DNA of 64,000 nt. Origin: Pristiophorus japonicus. Its lineage: Eukaryota. The DNA lies in assembly GCF_044704955.1 (NCBI RefSeq), contig NC_091979.1:316572001-316636000 (forward strand). The letters are read 5' to 3'. Positions 1,741 through 49,400 of this stretch are shown here, piece by piece; within the stretch, counting starts at the first letter, position 1; each line of letters opens with the position of its first letter. The translations under genes were made by a program, and so were the position numbers. The notes under the pieces are model-generated. The model worked only from the letters and a program-made list of their open reading frames with translations. It did no database searches and was not told where the DNA came from.

Positions 1741-2185
1741 AATGAGTATAGTTTCCCCAATGATTCATCTGGTTAAAGCAGTGAGTAGCTCAGCCATGTA
1801 AGCAGAAAGATCCCAGGATCCGATTCTGGATCCCTGCTGGATGCAAGTTCCCCAGTATCAGCGGCTTGAGCCTTTGATGCTCTTGTGCCTATTTTCAGGG
1901 AGGCTGCGAGCCTGGTTGGTGGGGAGGGGCAATGGGGATTGTGGTGTTAAGGTGCACCGTGACGGTATGGGACAGGCTCCATGGTCCAGCTGGTCTTTTC
2001 CTGTCTGTTGTTTTTGTTGTTTGTGTGGTTCAGCTTCTGGTTGTTATTTGAGCTGTCAGCTTTTTTAGCGCTGTTTAATAACTTTCCTGAGTTCCTCGGT
2101 TGGCCAGTGTGTAATCATTTCCCCATCACCATTCCTATCTGAATGTGTGACAAAACTAATAAATATTTAAACATATTTCTTACAG

Positions 2186-3614
2186 TGACACTGAAAGGGA
2201 CGCCCTGAAAGTGAAATTACTTCAGCTACAATGTCACTTCACGTGGAATCTGCAGATGGAAAATGTTGAGTGGGATGATTTGCAGGAACGACTAAACTAT
2301 ATAATAGAGTCTGATATTGTGAAATATCAAGCTATGACTTACAATCTACTTGCTTTTGTAAACTGTACGAGAGGCAACTGTGAGAAGTCGGTCAATAATT
2401 TATGGAAAGCTGAAGAAATTCTGAGGAAAAATCACAAATTTGAAATAGAAAAATGGAGCATCATCACCTATGGAAACTCTGCCTGGGTATATTATCATGT
2501 GGGAGAACTGGCAGAGGCCCAGTCCTACCTCGACGAGCTGGAGAGGATCTGTCAACAATTTACTGATGGCTCTCGGTATACAGCACTGATACCTGAAGTA
2601 TACGGGGAGAAGGGTTGGTCACTGTTGAAATGTGGCAGGAAATATTATGAAGAGGCAAATGAATGTATTGAGAAGGCTCTGGAGGGGGATCCTGATGACA
2701 TTGAATGGAACGCAGCTTATGCAACTGTTGTGTTTCGACTTAAAGAAACCTTTGAAGACCCACAGCGTCCTGAACACTGCAAGGTAGTGAAGCAGTTACG
2801 CCGCGCATTAGCACTGAACCCAAATGACTCGTTTGTCAAGATCATGTTGGCTCTGAGACTACAGGATTTCAATCAAATAGATGAATATTACAGATTACTT
2901 GAAGAAGTGCTGCTGGAGTCTCCTGATGATCCATATATAACTCAATATGCAGCCAAAGCTTTAAGAAAACAAGGATCTGTTGAATATTCCTTACAGCTAT
3001 TGAAAAAGGCACTGAAGGTTAAATCCTCTTCTGCACTTCTTCACCATGAGATCGGCTTATGTTACAAAGCTCAGCTGAAACCTCACCGGAAATACTTTGC
3101 TCGTGCAGACAGCAGAAAATTGATTGAACTTTGCAAGTACCATTTCCAAAAAGCGTATGAACAGAAACCCTCGCTTACTTTTGCAATACTTCATTTGGCG
3201 GAACTCCACGCAATATGTGGAGAATATTTCAAAGCCGATGATATCTACACCAACCTGCTTAGAAATAAAGATTACAGCCCTTTGAATAAACGATTAATAC
3301 ATTGGGACTATGGATTGTACCAGCTGTATAAGAAAGGATCCCAGCTGAATGCCATTCATCATTTCAAGGAATGCTTAAAACTCAAAGTTAAGACCAACAA
3401 GAATGAGGAATGCCGCGCAAAATTGAAACGTATTGCTGAAGATCGAATGAGTAAAGATTCAAGAGACAGTGTAGCTTTTGGTATATTGGGACTAATACAC
3501 CAGATTGATGGCAAGAAATCAGAAGCCATTGAATACTTTGAGAATGCCCTGGAGTGTGATCGTGACAATGAAGAATTTCAAAGTGCTCTATGTAAGCTGC
3601 GTCAGGTTACATAG
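2186..3614 (+). CDS. IFIT-family (interferon-induced protein with tetratricopeptide repeats, IFIT1/IFIT5-like) main coding exon 2; intact
   Basis: Motifs LQCHFTW, YGNxAWVYYH, EVYGEKGWSLLK, TPR helices and C-terminal AIEYFENALE. Splice acceptor tttcttacAG at 2184-2185 gives the typical IFIT phase-2 junction (ATGAG|T GAC ACT... = MSDTERDALKVKLLQLQCHFTW). The ORF-track GTG start is not the true start. Exon 1 was not found in the window. Confidence 0.93.
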
Positions 3615-17803: not shown

Positions 17804-18537
17804 CATCACCTATGGAAACTATGCCTGGGTATATTATCACATGGGCCAACTGATAGAGGCCCAGTCCTACCTCAACAAGCTGGAGATGATCTGTAAACAA
17901 TTTACTGATGGCTCTCGGTATAAGCACTGATACCTGAAGTATACGGGGAGAAGGGTTGGTCACTGTTGAGTTCTGCCGCTCAATACTATGAAGAGGCAAA
18001 GGAATGTTTTGAGAAGGCTCTGGAGGAAGATTCTGATGACACTGAATGGAACGTTGGCTATGCGACTGCTCTGTTTTGTCTGGAAGGGTTTTCTGGTACC
18101 CCAGAGAGTGGTGACCGCAGCCAATCAGTGAAGCGGTTACAACGTGTGCTGGAACTTGATCCAGATGACTCTGTAACCATGGTGATGTTGGCTCTAAAAC
18201 TGCAAGAGTTCAATCAAAAGGAGGCAGCACTCAGGAGTTCAATCAAAAGGAGGAAGTTGAACAAGCATTGCAGAAGTCTCCTGATCTTCCATATGTAACT
18301 CGTTATGCAGCAACATTTCTGAGAAGAGAAGATGTGGAAAAAGCTGTGGAGCTGTTGAAGAATGCATTAGAAATGACCCCAAACTCTCCCTTCTTACACC
18401 ACCAAATAGGTCTGTGTTACAGAAAGCGACTACTTCAACTGATCAAATATCCAGGCAGCAGAGACCCTCGCAATCCTGCTTTTCAACAGAAAGCTGAGTT
18501 GATCAATCAATGCAAGTACTATTTTCAAATGGCATTT
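17804..18537 (+). pseudogene. IFIT pseudogene fragment (5'- and 3'-truncated, frameshifted)
   Basis: ITYGNYAWVYYH...YYEEAKECFEKALEE...PYVTRYAA...FLHHQIGLCY. One-nt deletion at about 17921 and an internal duplication/frameshift at about 18205-18255. Ends at a CR1 tail. Confidence 0.9.
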
Positions 18538-18569
18538 AACATAGAAACATAGAAACATATAAATTTACA

Positions 18570-41182: not shown

Positions 41183-41965
41183 CCCCATTCCCCAGTCTCC
41201 CTCTCCCCGAGCCCCCATTCCCCAGTCTCTCTCTCCCCGAGCCCCCATTCCCCAGTCTCTATCTCCCCGAGCCCCCATTCCCAAGTCTCCCAGTCCCCAA
41301 TCCCCCATTCCCCAGTCTCCCTCTCCCAGAGCCCCCATTCCCCAGTCTCCCTCTCTCCCCGAGCCCCCATTCCCCAGTCTCTCTCTCCACGAGGCCCCAT
41401 TCCCAAGTCTCCCTCTCCCCAAGCCCTCATTCCCCAGTCTCCCGCTCCCCGAGCCCCCATTCCCCAGTCTCTCTCTCCCCGAGGCCCCATTCCCAAGTCT
41501 CCCTCTCCCCAAGCCCTCATTCCCCAGTCTCTCTCTCCCCGAGCCCCCATTCCCAAGTCTCCCAGTCCCCAAGCCCCCATTCGCCAGTCTCCCGCTCCCT
41601 GAGCCCCCATTCCCCAGTCACCGTCTCCCTGAACCCCCATTCCCCAGTCTCCCTCTCCCCAAGCTCCCATTCCTCAGTCTCCCACTCTCCCCAAGCCCCC
41701 ATTCCCCAGTCTCCCTCGCCCGGAGCCCCCATTCCCAGTCTCCCTCTTCCCAAGCCCCCATTCCCCAGTCTCTCCCTCTCTCCCCGAGCCCCCATTCCCC
41801 AGTCTCCCTCTCCCCCACCCCCCATTCCCCAGTCTCCCTCTCCACGAGCCCCCATTCCCCAGTCTCCCTCTCCCTGAGCCCCCATTCCCCAGTCTCTCTC
41901 TCCCCAAGCCCCCATTCCCAGTCTCCCTCTCTCCCCCAGCCCCCATTCCCAGTCTCCCTCTCCTC
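41183..41965. repeat. 30-bp minisatellite (CCCCCATTCCCCAGTCTCCCTCTCCCCGAG)n, left array
   Basis: Visible approximately 30-bp period with indel variants. Confidence 0.95.
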
Positions 41966-41976
41966 CGGCCACCATA

Positions 41977-42037
41977 CATAGAATCATAGAATGGTTGCAG
42001 CACGGAAGACGACCATTTGGCCATCCAGCCCGTGCCG
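41977..42037 (-). mobile_element. About 60-bp CR1 extreme 3' end abutting the MHC class I 3' UTR
   Basis: The - strand reads GGCACGGGCTGGATGGCCAAATGGTCGTCTTCCGTGCTGCAACCATTCTATGATTCTATG: CR1 3' stem-loop region plus (ATTCTATG)2 tail. Confidence 0.7.
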
Positions 42038-42288
42038 AATTAGACATATCTCATTTACATTAAACACCAAAAGACCCAACTGGAGATTTCTATCCAATCA
42101 CCAAAAAGAAAATATCCCCAAACCCACTCAATGATAGATACGTTACCGATTACTATTAACACTGGCAGCAGCCAGTGACAATCAAACGAAATGAAGATGC
42201 AGAATCGTGGATTGCTTCTGAATGAACCCTCCTTGCGACACAGCAAGTCCAGATTCTAGTCCCAGTGAACTTCACTTCGGGACCAGCC

Positions 42289-43356
42289 TCAGGCTTGGGC
42301 TGGTGAGTTTGGGGATAATTCTCCTCGTTCAGCAGGGTTCGCTGGGCTGTAACCAGATGTCTCCTCTCCTCCTCTCCTCTTCCACACAACCGCACCGATC
42401 ACAAGAGCAATCAGGGCGACGGCAGCAATCACAATTCCAACAATCAAACCCCTATTTGTTCCCTCTGGCGATCCTGGAGTCACTCGGAACGTCCCGTCCC
42501 AGTCTCGGGTCTTCCCTCCTGCTTGGCCGCTCTGCTCATACTGACAGGAATAGGTGGCTCCATCCGCGGGCTCGATCTGAGCCCATGTCGTGAGCTGGTA
42601 GGTGCCATCGTGGTTGGGCAGGATGCCCGTGGATTCCGTGTCCCTGATTGGCTCGCCATTTCTCAGGAGGGTCACTTGGATTTCGCGAGGGTAAAAACCT
42701 GTGAGGAGACAGGAGAGTTGGGGGGCTTTAATATTCGACGCCTTGTCCACAGAAGGAAACACTTGAGGAGCAACAGCTCCCAGTTCTCTCTCTCCAGCCT
42801 TCAGGTATTTCTTCAGCCACTCGATGCACTCCTGCTCCAGGTAACTTTTGTCCTGCTGCATTTCGGCCCTGTCCTGGTCCCACTTGTTCTTGGTGATCTC
42901 TCCCCACGGTACCGGGGTGACCCACACCAGGCGATCCTTGTCGAAGCTGATCAGGTCCTTCCCGTCCCAGCCGTACTGCCAGAAGCCGCTGGTGGTGCCG
43001 CCATCCCGCAGCTCACAGCCGCACAACCTCTGCAGCGTGTGGATCCCGCCGGTCTGGTTGGTGCGGGTTAAGACGGTCTGAATGTTGCCTTTCATCACCT
43101 GCTCCTTGCCCCGCAGGATCTGTGTGTAGCGCTCCCAGTACTCGGCGCCCTCGCTCTCCCTGATCCACCGCTGCCGCGGGGTGTACTGGCGGCTCACACT
43201 GTCATAGTAAATAAACTGCTGGTCATCCACATAACCCACATCGGTGAACTCAGCAATGCCCGGGAGCGGAGTGATAGCCGTGTGCATGTACCGTAGGGAG
43301 TGAGAGCCTGCACACACCTCTCCACACAGAAGGGCCAGCACGGTCAGTCCAAACAT
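42289..43356 (-). CDS. Intronless MHC class I heavy chain, resembling the shark classical UAA lineage (355 aa)
   Basis: Signal peptide MFGLTVLALLCGEVCA; alpha1 GSHSLRY...EYWER...RTNQT (N86 glycan); alpha2 CGCEL...EITKNKWD...YLEQECIEWLKKY; alpha3 LSCLLTGFYP...PNHDGTYQ...YSC; TM GLIVGIVIAAVALIALVIGAVVW; tail with GYSPA. Single open frame across all normal exon junctions. Confidence 0.95.
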   Translation of the reverse strand: MFGLTVLALLCGEVCAGSHSLRYMHTAITPLPGIAEFTDVGYVDDQQFIYYDSVSRQYTPRQRWIRESEGAEYWERYTQILRGKEQVMKGNIQTVLTRTNQTGGIHTLQRLCGCELRDGGTTSGFWQYGWDGKDLISFDKDRLVWVTPVPWGEITKNKWDQDRAEMQQDKSYLEQECIEWLKKYLKAGERELGAVAPQVFPSVDKASNIKAPQLSCLLTGFYPREIQVTLLRNGEPIRDTESTGILPNHDGTYQLTTWAQIEPADGATYSCQYEQSGQAGGKTRDWDGTFRVTPGSPEGTNRGLIVGIVIAAVALIALVIGAVVWKRRGGEETSGYSPANPAERGELSPNSPAQA

Positions 43357-43452
43357 TGTTACTTCCCTCGACAGGCTGGAATGAGCGGTTTGCAGGCAAT
43401 CCTTTTCCGAGAGACCGTCCGTGAGCTGCGCCCAATTCAGACCGTGTGATTC

Positions 43453-44610
43453 CTGTGCCCTGTGCCGATACTGTGTCTCTGGGACTGTCTCTCTGTGCCC
43501 TGTGCTGATACTGTGTCTCTGGGACTGTCTCTCTGTGCCCAGTGCTGATACTGTGTCTCTGGGACTGTCTCTCTGTGCCCAGTGCTGATACTGTGTCTCT
43601 GGGACTGTCTCTCTGTGCCCAGTGCTGATACTGTGTCTCTGGGACTGTCTCTCTGTGCCCAGTGCTGATACTGTGTCCCTGGGACTGTCTCTCTGTGCCC
43701 TGTGCTGATACTGTGTCTCTGGGACTGTCTCTCTGTGCCCTGTGCTGATACTGTGTCCCTGGGACTGTCTCTCTGTGCCCAGTGCTGATACTGTGTCCCT
43801 GGGACTGTCTCTCTGTGCCCTGTGCTGATACTGTGTCTCTGGGACTGTCTCTCTGTGCCCTGTGCTGATACTGTGTCCCTGGGACTGTTTCTCTGTGCCC
43901 TGTGCCGATACTGTGTCTCTGGGACTGTCTCTCTGTGCCCAGTGCTGATACTGTGTCTCTGGGACTGTCTCTGTGCCCTGTGCTGATACTGTGTCTCTGG
44001 GACTGTCTCTGTGCCCTGTGCTGATACTGTGTCTCTGAGACTGTCTCTCGGTGCCCTGTGCTGATACTGTGTCTCTGGGACTGTCTCTCTGTGCCCAGTG
44101 CTGATACTGTGTCCCTGGGACTGTCTCTCTGTGCCCTGTGCTGATACTGTGTCTCTGGGACTGTCTCTGTGTGCCCTGTGCTGATACTGTGTCTCTGGGA
44201 CTGTCTCTCTGTGCCCTGTGCTGATACTGTGTCTCTGGGACTGTCTCTCTGTGCCCTGTGCTGATACTGTGTCTCTGGGACTGTCTCTCTGTGCCCTATG
44301 CTGATACTGTGTCTCCGGGACTGTCTTGGTGCCCTGTGCTGATACTGTGTCTCTGGGACTGTCTCTGTGCCCTGTGCTGATACTGTGTCTCTGGGACTGT
44401 CTCTCTGTGCCCTGTGCTGATACTGTGTCTCTGGGACTGTCTCGGTGCCCTGTGCTGATACTGTGTCTCTGGGACTGTCTCTGTGCCCTGTGCTGATACT
44501 GTGTCTCTGGGACTGTCTCTCTGTGCCCTGTGCTGATACTGTGTCTCTGGGACTGTCTCGGTGCCCTGTGCTGATACTGTGTCTCTGGGACTGTCTCTGT
44601 GCCCTGTGCT
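43453..44610. repeat. 40/38-bp minisatellite (TGTGCTGATACTGTGTCTCTGGGACTGTCTCTCTGTGCCC)n, about 29 units
   Basis: Visible period; lies between the MHC ATG and the X-Y module. Confidence 0.97.
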
Positions 44611-44796
44611 GTCTGTTCTTGCGCTTTGCCCAGTGCAGAGTGTTTTACACTCAGACTCCTCCGGTTCGATTGGTTCGAGGGTATATTTGTCTCCAATTAC
44701 AATAAAAACAGGCTGTGAGTCAATAGGCTCCGGGTAGAAAAGACACGGGGAGAGTTTGTGTTGGTGCCGAAATAAACTTTCCAAACATTGAACTAT

Positions 44797-44838
44797 CCAA
44801 TCAGACAAATACTGCGAGCTGCATCATCAGTTGCCGGG
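44797..44838 (-). promoter_or_regulatory. MHC enhanceosome X1-X2-Y module (RFX, CREB/ATF and NF-Y sites)
   Basis: The - strand reads CCCGGCAACTGATG ATGCAGCTCGCAGTATTTGT CTGATTGG: X1, overlapping X2-like TGATGCA, a 20-nt spacer and Y box CTGATTGG, oriented toward the class I ORF. Confidence 0.8.
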
Positions 44839-44956
44839 TAGGTTAAAGATAATCCCCGCCTCTCCCGGTCCCGAGTTCTCCCACCACCATCCAAACCCAA
44901 CTTCCCGACTCCCAACCCCCCGAAAGCTCTGCCCACCCCCGGCAGCTCGATCTCCT

Positions 44957-45272: not shown

Positions 45273-45818
45273 ACCCATTCCCCAGTCTCTCTCTCCCGAG
45301 CCCCCATTCCCCCTCTCCCCGAGCCCCCATTCCCCAGTCTCCATCTCCCCGAGGCCCCATTCCCCAGTCTTCCTCTCCCCGAGCCCCCATTCCCCAATCT
45401 CTTTCTCCCTGAGCCCCCATTCCCCAGTCTCCCTCTCCCCGAGCTCCCATTCCCCAGTCTCCCTCTCCCTGAGCCCCCATTCCCCAGTTTCCCTCTCCCC
45501 AAGCCTTCATTCCCCAGTCTCCCTCTCCCCGAGCCCCCATTCCCCAGTTTCCCTCTCCCCAAGCCCCCATTTCCCAGTCTCCCTCTCCCCGAGCCCCCAT
45601 TCCCCAGTCTCCCTCTCCCCGAGCTCCCATTCCCCAGTCTCCCTCTCCCCAAGCCTCCATTCCCCATTCTCACTCTCCCCAAGCCCCCATTCCCCAGTCT
45701 CCCTCTCCCCGAGCCCCCATTCCCCAGTCTCCCTCTCCCCGAGCCCCCATTCCCCAGTCTCCCTCTCCCCGAGCCCCCATTCCCCAGTCTCCCATTCCCC
45801 GAGCCCTCTTTCCCCAGT
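45273..45818. repeat. 30-bp minisatellite (CCCCCATTCCCCAGTCTCCCTCTCCCCGAG)n, right array; same unit and orientation as 41183-41965
   Basis: Visible period. Confidence 0.95.
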
Positions 45819-46464: not shown

Positions 46465-49400
46465 CAACACACTGAATGATTGCTTGAAAGCAAAACTTGG
46501 CCGCTTCAATGTCACTTCACGTGGGGCCCACAGAGAGACAGCATTGACTTGGACGACATGAAGTATAGATTACAAGATTTAATACAGGCTCGTGTGAAAT
46601 ATCAGGCCAGGTCTGACAACCACCTCGCATTTGTAAACTGTCAGCAAGGCAATTCAAAGGGGCAATTCAAAACTTAAAGGAAGCTGAAAAGATTCTGAGG
46701 GAGAACCATGAACATGAATTTGAAAGAAGAAGCATCATCACCTATGGAAACTATGCCTGGGTATATTATCACATGGGCCAACTGACAGAGGCCCAGTCCT
46801 ACCTCGACAAGCTGGAGATGATCTGTAAATAATTTACTGATGGCTCTCAGTATACAGCACTGATACCTGAAGTATACGGGGAGAAGGGTTGGTCACTGTT
46901 GAATTCTCCTTGTCAATACTATGAAGAGGCAAAGGAATGTTTTGAGAAGACTCTGGAGGAAGATCCTGATGACACTGAATGGAACGTTGGCTATGCGACT
47001 GTTTTGTTCCGTCTGGAAGGGTTTTCTGGTACCCCAGAGAGTGGTGACTGCAGCCAATCAGTGAAGCAGTTGTGACGTGTGCTGGAACTTGATCCAGATG
47101 ACTCTGTAGCCATGTTGGCTCTAAAACTACAAGAGTTCAATCAAAAGGTGGAAGAACACGAATTAGTTGAACAAGCATTGCAGAAGTCCCCTGATCTTCC
47201 ATATGTAACTCGTTATGCAGCAAAATTTTACAGAAGAGAAGGAGATGTGGAAAAAGCTGTGGAGCTGTTGAAGAAAGCATTAAAAATTACTCCAAACTCT
47301 ACCTTCATACACCACCAAATAGGTCAGTGTTGCAGAAAAAAAATATTTCAACTGATCAAATATCCAGGCAGCAAAGCCCCTCGCAATCCTGCTTTTCAAC
47401 AGAAAGCTGAGTTGATCAATCAATGCAAGTACTATTTTGAAAAGGCATTTGAGCAGAAGCCATCATTTATTTTTGCACAATTGCAAATCTACAACGCAGA
47501 AGGAGGCCATTTCGGCCCATCGTGTCCACACCGGCCGACAAAGAAACATACGGCCCTCAGTCAGCAGCCCTGAAAGTTACATATAAACGTATGAACAATG
47601 AACAATGGCAGAAAGGTAAAGAGCACCCAGCCCAACCAGTCTGCCCCACACAACTGCGACACCCCTTGCACCGAAACATTCTACACTCCTCCCCAACCGG
47701 AGCCATGTGATCTCCTGGGAAAGGCAAAAAACAGATAAAAACCCAGGTCAATTGGGGAAAAAATATCTCGGAACATTCCTCTCCAACCCATCCAGGTAAT
47801 CGAAACTCGTCCAGGAGATCACCCTGGATATATTCGATTTGCTGCAGTACTTACCATCATAGCTGTGCCTGCCAACAACAGGTTATCCAGTCTAATCCCA
47901 CTTACCAGCTTTAGGTCCATGTAACCCTGCAGATTATGGCACTTCAAGTGTCCATCCAAGCACCTTTTAAATGTGTTGAGGGTTTCTACATCCACCACCC
48001 TTCCAGGCCCTAAGTTCCAGACCCCCACAACCCTCTGCTTGAAAAAGCCACCCCTCAAATCCCCTCTGAACCTTCCACCAACCACCTTAAAACTATGCCC
48101 CCTCATAATTGAACCCACCACCAAGGGAAATAGGTCCTTGCTATCCACTATATCCAGACCCCTCAAAATTTTGGACACCTCAATGAGGTCTCCTCTCAAC
48201 ATCCTCTGTTCCAATGAGAACAAACACAGCCTATCCAATGATGTGGTATATTTGGACTTTCAGAAGGCTTTCGACAAGGTCCCACACAAGAGATTAATGT
48301 GCAAAGTTAAAGCACATGGGATTGGGGGTAGTGTGCTGACGTGGATTGAGAACTGGTTGTCAGACAGGAAGCAAAGAGTAGGAGTAAATGGGTACTTTTC
48401 AGAATGGCAGGCAGTGACTAGTGGGGTACCACAAGGTTCTGTGCTGGGGCCCCAGCTGTTTACATTGTACATTAATGATTTAGATGAGGGGATTAAATGT
48501 AGTATCTCCAAATTTGCGGATGACACTAAGTTGGGTGGCAGTGTGAGCTGCGAGGAGGATGCTATGAGGCTGCAGAGTGACTTGGATAGGTTAGGTGAGT
48601 GGGCAAATGAATGGCAGATGAAGTATAATGTGGATAAATGTGAGGTTATCCACTTTGGTGGTAAAAACAGAGAGACAGACTATTATCTGAATGGTGACAG
48701 ATTAGTAAAAGGGAAGGTGCAACGAGACCTGGGTGTCATGGTACATCAGTCATTGAAGGTTGGCATGCAGGTACAGCAGGCGGTTAAGAAAGCAAATGGC
48801 ATGTTGGCCTTCATAGCGAGGGGATTTGAGTACAGGGGCTGGGAGGTGTTGCTACAGTTGTACAGGGCCTTGGTGAGGCCACACCTGGAGTATTGTGTAC
48901 AGTTTTGGTCTCCTAACTTGAGGAAGGACATTCTTGCTATTGAGAGAGTGCAGCGAAGATTCACCAGACTGATTCCCGGGATGGTGGGACTGACCTATCA
49001 AGAAAGACTGGATCAACTGGGCTTGTATTCACTGGAGTTCAGAAGAATGAGAGGGGACCTCATAGAAACGTTTAAAATTCTGACGGGTTTAGACAGGTTA
49101 GATGCAGGAAGAATGTTCCCAATGTTGGGGAAGTCACAGTCTAAGGATAAGGGGTAAGCCATTTAGGACCGAGATGAGGAGAAACTTCTTCACCCAGAGA
49201 GTGGTGAACCTGTGGAATTCTCTACCACAGAAAGTAGTTGAGGCCAATTCACTAAATATATTCAAAAGGGAGTTAGATGAAGTCCTTACTACTCGGGGGA
49301 TCAAGGGGTATGGCGAGAAAGCAGGAAGGGGGTACTGAAGTTTCATGTTCAGCCATGAACTGATTGAATGATGGTGCAGGCGAGAAGGGCTGAATGGCCT

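Follow-up and report, generated by a model that had tools for sequence, protein, structure and literature searches.

The ORF2 protein of a stringent LINE binds its cognate 3′ stem-loop, as described for zebrafish L2 elements in the extract of PMC4176376 used here, and SINEs borrow LINE 3′ tails (PMC3747384, in extract). CR1 is limited in what it can mobilise (extract of PMC5470649), and its specificity is the usual reason given for the small number of retrogenes in birds and other CR1-rich genomes (extracts of PMC5470649 and PMC3136929). In sharks, HE1/HER1 is a case of a SINE having its 3′ tail in common with a stringent LINE (the relevant part of Ohshima 2013, PMC3747384), while snoRTE and PlatSINE1 are bipartite, RTE-tailed SINEs in which host RNA joined to a LINE tail has been amplified (the relevant part of Kojima 2020, PMC7245038). 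Processed pseudogenes and retrogenes made by L1 are characterized by exact intron loss, 5′ truncation and dispersal, and some of these retrogenes carry parental regulatory motifs (Casola and Betran 2017, PMC5470649, in extract). With respect to shark MHC class I, the portion of Verissimo et al. (2023, PMC10751288) drawn on here describes a survey of elasmobranch genomes in which class I genes were found nowhere but in the MHC; its supplements may list class I hits.

The locus described here lies in a window of 64,000 nucleotides (the whole stretch of DNA that was analysed) from Pristiophorus japonicus (NC_091979.1, positions 316,572,001 to 316,636,000; contig C3 below). Like the tail-sharing SINEs it would represent a non-autonomous RNA mobilised through a borrowed tail; unlike in them, a spliced mRNA that codes for protein is involved, with the tail inside its UTR, and the copies have neither the small-RNA head nor the uniform 5′ end of a SINE, their 5′ ends being variable. 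The snoRTE and PlatSINE1 families, in which host RNA and a LINE tail are likewise combined, are uniform non-coding chimeras, whereas here we find 5′-truncated copies of a gene, together with one gene family that is intact. Shared with L1 retrocopies are the exact loss of introns, 5′ truncation and dispersal, as are the parental regulatory motifs of the window copy, but in contrast to an L1-type processed pseudogene it has no poly(A) tail or polyadenylation signal and no target-site duplication (TSD), and an internal CR1 tail sets its 3′ end. In the class I domains and the nine anchor residues the gene resembles the shark class I genes already described; unlike those, nine copies are intronless and lie on another contig (C3 and not C19). 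There is also a resemblance to 5′ transduction by SVA in primates, in which upstream spliced host exons are carried along as a transcript runs into the retroelement; that process is driven by L1 and poly(A), whereas here there is only a 60-nt tail, with internal priming as the proposed route.

In the literature searched, most subscription papers lying outside it, we found no natural case in which a CR1 tail embedded in the UTR led to retroposition of a protein-coding mRNA, and no report of intronless shark class I genes. Tail sharing, retrogenes and 5′ transduction all have precedent, and each part is known singly. Taking the parts jointly, we lean towards the view, on sequence grounds, that in genomes dominated by stringent LINEs a sense LINE tail in a 3′ UTR can make a gene's mRNA a repeated retroposition substrate, that this has happened twice here to class I genes (CR1 and RTE), and that the CR1 route gave rise to a class I family that works, has its own promoter and lies away from the MHC, in an interferon-response cluster. 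The locus would then show the loophole predicted by the CR1-specificity model, with internal controls, since one gene accounts for about 40 insertions whose 3′ end is internal and fixed, and another gene, carrying another tail, behaves alike; a testable rule emerges for which genes are retrocopied outside mammals. Intact class I genes are also added outside the shark MHC, where the recent survey, in the portion drawn on here, found none (PMC10751288).

Structure of the window gene

The minus strand of the window carries an unbroken, intronless MHC class I heavy-chain ORF of 355 aa (43356-42289). Translation and alignment show that all nine conserved peptide-anchor residues, for which the numbering is our assumption, are retained, and a UniRef cluster labelled Pristiophorus japonicus matches the protein at 99% identity. 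The stop codon is followed by a 3′ UTR of 252 nt (42037-42288), which derives from exon 8 of the parent gene, where it is spliced to the stop-codon exon; it is 81% identical to C19:54658196-54657885 and the junction is crossed. The 3′ end of the retrocopy is a 5′-truncated CR1 3′ terminus of 60 nt (41977-42036), also on the minus strand and also present in the last exon of the parent. Its predicted fold is a hairpin (about 42036-41999) of -23.9 kcal/mol, a figure without a shuffle control, then two octamers, (ATTCTATG)2, at 41992-41977; the piece ends ATTCTATGATTCTATG. A hairpin followed by an octamer microsatellite is the CR1 3′ structure given in the extract of PMC8665684, and the predicted structure of the window tail matches it. 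Alignment places the piece at the 3′ terminus of elements that form an abundant family (2799 first-look candidates), and at 8 of the 12 family loci examined a sense match to the C-terminus of a LINE ORF2 in the window continues into the tail region. By chance, a same-sense CR1-like tail would be expected in 320 nt about 1% of the time (16 tails in 264 kb).

Neither AATAAA nor ATTAAA occurs in 41871-42290 and there is no A-tail; a G-rich 30-bp minisatellite (41183-41975) comes next, and a second array of the same unit (45302-45818) begins 460 nt past the 5′ limit of homology. No match to the post-tail parental DNA was found downstream of the tail, no TSD at the ends of the copy and no empty insertion site, the 5′ flank matching only the duplicated C3 copies.

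Upstream of the ORF, the window copy has the class I 5′ UTR (43357-43452) common to intron-containing paralogs (80% identity to L089, 75-77% to L087 and L088), then a 40-bp minisatellite of 29.4 copies (43453-44611), a few related units of which occupy the corresponding position in paralog L089, and then the parental proximal promoter (44612-44842), all on the minus strand. The promoter is 75-84% identical to five class I promoters, with all matches starting at 44842. At this position begins a motif that we take to be X-box-like, followed at a spacing of 20 nt by a presumptive Y box (CTGATTGG, 44804-44797). The 5′ limit of homology is thus at 44842, at the X-box-like motif; the paralogs share 55-750 nt farther upstream, a stretch that the window copy lacks. 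The promoter segment of about 230 nt is absent from every other dispersed copy.

A preliminary description, made from the sequence of the window, had already placed about 60 nt of CR1 terminus some 250 nt past the stop codon in the same orientation, with no AATAAA or poly(A), and both observations hold. The extent of the copy that it recognized was too short, as homology reaches the parental promoter. The weak TSD pair that it put forward (42038-42045 and 43434-43442) exists as letters but is not a TSD, because 43434-43442 lies in the paralog-shared 5′ UTR and 42038-42045 in the parent-shared 3′ UTR.

The parent gene

An exon-by-exon protein match in the same genome locates the parent at C19:54675987-54657885, a gene of eight exons and seven GT-AG introns with a 355-aa product. 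All seven parental exon junctions are crossed by the window copy, from which the introns have been exactly lost; with one gene on C3 and the other on C19, the two are unlinked. Exon 8 of the parent already holds the 60-nt CR1 hairpin and ATTCTATG tail. Alignment with the intron-containing parent, which the preliminary description had proposed as a check, therefore found the CR1 end in the parental 3′ UTR.

Two sequencing runs (X1 and X2) contain joints skipping two parental introns and coverage extending about 300 nt beyond the tail. The dispersed copy L196 continues for some 400 nt after the tail, where it terminates with AATAAA and A8. The CR1 tail is therefore internal to the parent mRNA and not its end, and the final 300-400 nt of that mRNA are missing from the window copy.

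A proteasome beta exon is located about 260 kb from the parent, which fits the class Ia region of sharks in the linkage context given in the relevant part of PMC10751288. The present-day parent is not the exact source of the window copy, because its 5′ UTR is shorter than that of the window copy, which resembles the paralogs there, and because alpha1 dS between the two is 0.91, against about 0.25 in the other domains. Elsewhere on C19, at 56677602-56677832 (L085), there is a class I promoter 97% like that of the parent; the nearest alpha1 exon found is 65 kb away.

Dispersed copies

A search with the UTR plus tail, in which 40 of 935 candidates were scored, yielded 30 dispersed loci besides the parent and the nine C3 copies, and a junction pattern gave 38 hits, with none for the control. 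The 30 dispersed loci and 10 pattern loci were read; after removal of the transposon-borne one and of L101, a duplicate of L099, 38 independent dispersed copies remained. All but one of these (37/38) stop in or at the tail, so the screen for other intronless copies ending in a CR1 tail that had been suggested beforehand proved positive. The copies cover 74-1204 nt of the mRNA with variable 5′ ends (median 326, which the 315-nt length of the query biases), an exon junction is crossed in 23 of the 38, and the number of octamer repeats differs among them. Apart from short repeat matches, their flanks are unrelated. TSD-like words in the CR1-tailed copies are at chance level (5/37, compared with 12% in the control). 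Recombination into resident CR1 elements was considered and rejected, CR1 body being present in just 1 of 38 5′ flanks.

A query with the post-tail UTR, which avoids picking copies by their tail, found four dispersed matches, with all five candidates scored. The loci concerned are L060/L195, L143, L196 and L197, of which only L196 has poly(A); L060 is interrupted for about 6 kb and then resumes. Other routes therefore also copy class I mRNA. L195, L197 and L143 pass the CR1 tail and end at one common flank sequence, which suggests a third capture route. If the C3 gene and the transposon-borne copy each count as a single event, at least 39 events end at the tail and four pass it.

One spliced retrocopy, extending from mid-alpha3 to the UTR, is found inside a 1.3-1.5 kb terminal-inverted-repeat element (L012-L017, L019-L024, L028 and L030). 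Many coding fragments might have been taken for separate retrocopies; 13 of them are this one transposon-borne retrocopy and were counted as a single event. L010 and L051 (C13:26.06-26.08 Mb) are the two parts of a single long, dead retrocopy, between which about 20 kb of DNA has been inserted.

Proposed mechanism and alternatives

The tail is in the parental UTR and dozens of copies stop there, so a retrotransposon likely copied the mRNA via the borrowed tail. The window gene is a processed copy of an MHC class I gene, and we consider it very probable that CR1 reverse transcriptase recognised the 60-nt tail inside the parental 3′ UTR and primed there; the part played by the CR1 enzyme we infer from the anatomy of the copies. 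A 5′-truncated CR1 would have inserted in sense into the parental 3′ UTR, after which CR1 ORF2 would have acted in trans on the spliced germline mRNA, with target-primed reverse transcription from the octamers, and neither the poly(A) tail nor the final 300-400 nt would have been copied. One rare full-length event may have used a transcript initiated at the X box or farther upstream, in which case the copy brought its promoter with it, and segmental duplication of the surrounding IFIT-like cluster would then have given nine copies.

The preliminary description had allowed the mRNA either to carry a CR1 tail or to be joined to one by template switching. The former is borne out by exon 8 of the parent and the latter is not needed, being an additional step that is superfluous given the embedded tail. 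In such a switch, reverse transcription would have begun on genuine CR1 RNA and moved to the class I mRNA at the common 60 nt of homology; this homology does exist, and the tails of most copies are indistinguishable from the CR1 family tail. Nevertheless, L019, L028, L067 and L109 carry the parent's own shortened tail, L019 also grouping with the parent in the copy tree (100/96), and we regard a switch as very unlikely.

Most copies might instead stem from one or a few transcribed retrocopies acting as SINE-like masters, and not from the intron-containing gene. The copies are 86-97% identical to their majority sequence, most of them being nearer to it than to today's parent, and L058 and the window gene form a weak group (88/83). 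The tree is nevertheless star-like, with 20 of 29 inner branches open, and 5′ ends vary; moreover, the younger transposon-borne copy has 16 of 40 derived sites in common with the parent, and the CR1 tail would still be required, all of which leaves such masters a very unlikely source.

Very improbable, in our judgement, is a DNA-level duplicate from which the introns were removed by recombination with cDNA: it would account for the 230 nt of promoter, which a normal mRNA would lack, but homology stops at the X box although the paralogs share 55-750 nt more upstream, and it stops exactly at the tail, without parental downstream DNA. Next to no credence can be given to a poly(A)-primed copy later hit by an independent CR1 insertion, or to a tail outside the copy, for although CR1-like tails occur frequently (16 in 264 kb), the identical UTR-tail junction occurs in the parent and at dozens of unlinked loci, the parent's sequence refutes a later insertion and the two words of the alternative TSD pair fall within parental sequence.

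The retrogene family on C3

Priming by CR1 at the embedded tail, which we prefer, would have founded a gene family. Nine copies of the window gene are located at C3:316.6-319.3 Mb, and 8 of the 9 have intact ORFs with 0-9 nt differences; some may be assembly duplicates. They lie outside the MHC and inside a large cluster of single-exon TPR genes (2163-3614, 17924-18552 and 46659-47573 in the window), which we take to be IFIT-like. The cluster extends over G000:C3:316.35-319.54 Mb, with TPR genes also at C5:24.7-25.1 Mb; a search for these genes gave 91 matches. A broken TPR-gene piece is found about 2 kb beyond the promoter of each class I retrogene copy.

Being on C3, the window copy lacks the linkage to PSMB8/9 and TAP that goes with class Ia. 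In an alpha3 tree its protein falls in a clade of 11 shark sequences (100/99), the lineage of Squalus Q8HWH7. Contigs of 560, 315 and 286 nt from X1 have 0-1 differences to the window gene; those of X2 are shorter, one covering 43235-43426 with 0 differences, and X3, coded as another organism and study, has 99% pieces of it. Judged from contigs of an intronless gene in runs of unrecorded kind, the window copy is likely transcribed. By pairwise counts, its dN/dS against the parent is 0.43 over alpha3-TM-cytoplasmic, and seven dead copies give 0.57-0.85 over a similar stretch; the lower value for the window copy is suggestive only.

A second tailed gene, and controls

A control search with the alpha3 exon of a paralog revealed eight dispersed copies, all from one C19 paralog (C19:5715-5717 Mb). 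The last exon of this gene contains a 556-nt element (G000:C19:57169205-57169761, L037) with a TSD, and four other paralogs show the empty site. The element ends in a tail common to ORF2 elements that are presumably of RTE type; Pfam gave no family. Of 41 matches, with the copies numbered L145-L173, thirty loci were read; besides the gene itself and the four paralogs without the tail, these comprise 24 distinct copies at dispersed sites. Nineteen of the 24 end at the tail, five are broken earlier and none pass it, and no copies of the four untailed paralogs are among the loci read. The 3′ end is fixed here too, but at another position, given by another tail in another gene. A TSD search of the RTE-tailed copies gave 3 of 11 candidates.

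Among other genes, GAPDH had no processed copies among six exon-sized matches and RPL21 gave three matches, these Pfam-based controls covering coding parts and missing UTR-only copies. One of the RPL21 matches (G000:C3:66928451-66928753) is full-length with one stop. Eighteen dispersed fragments of a proteasome alpha subunit (L174-L191), which we assume to be PSMA4-like, represent one retrocopy with AATAAA and an A-tail in a common element of about 1.5-1.9 kb. They are a single poly(A)-type copy and so speak neither for nor against the generality of the tail rule, but ordinary poly(A) retroposition is evidently not absent here. The scarcity of processed genes expected beforehand holds in part, poly(A)-type copies also being present in this genome. 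L192 is a proteasome beta-like sequence that is apparently intronless.
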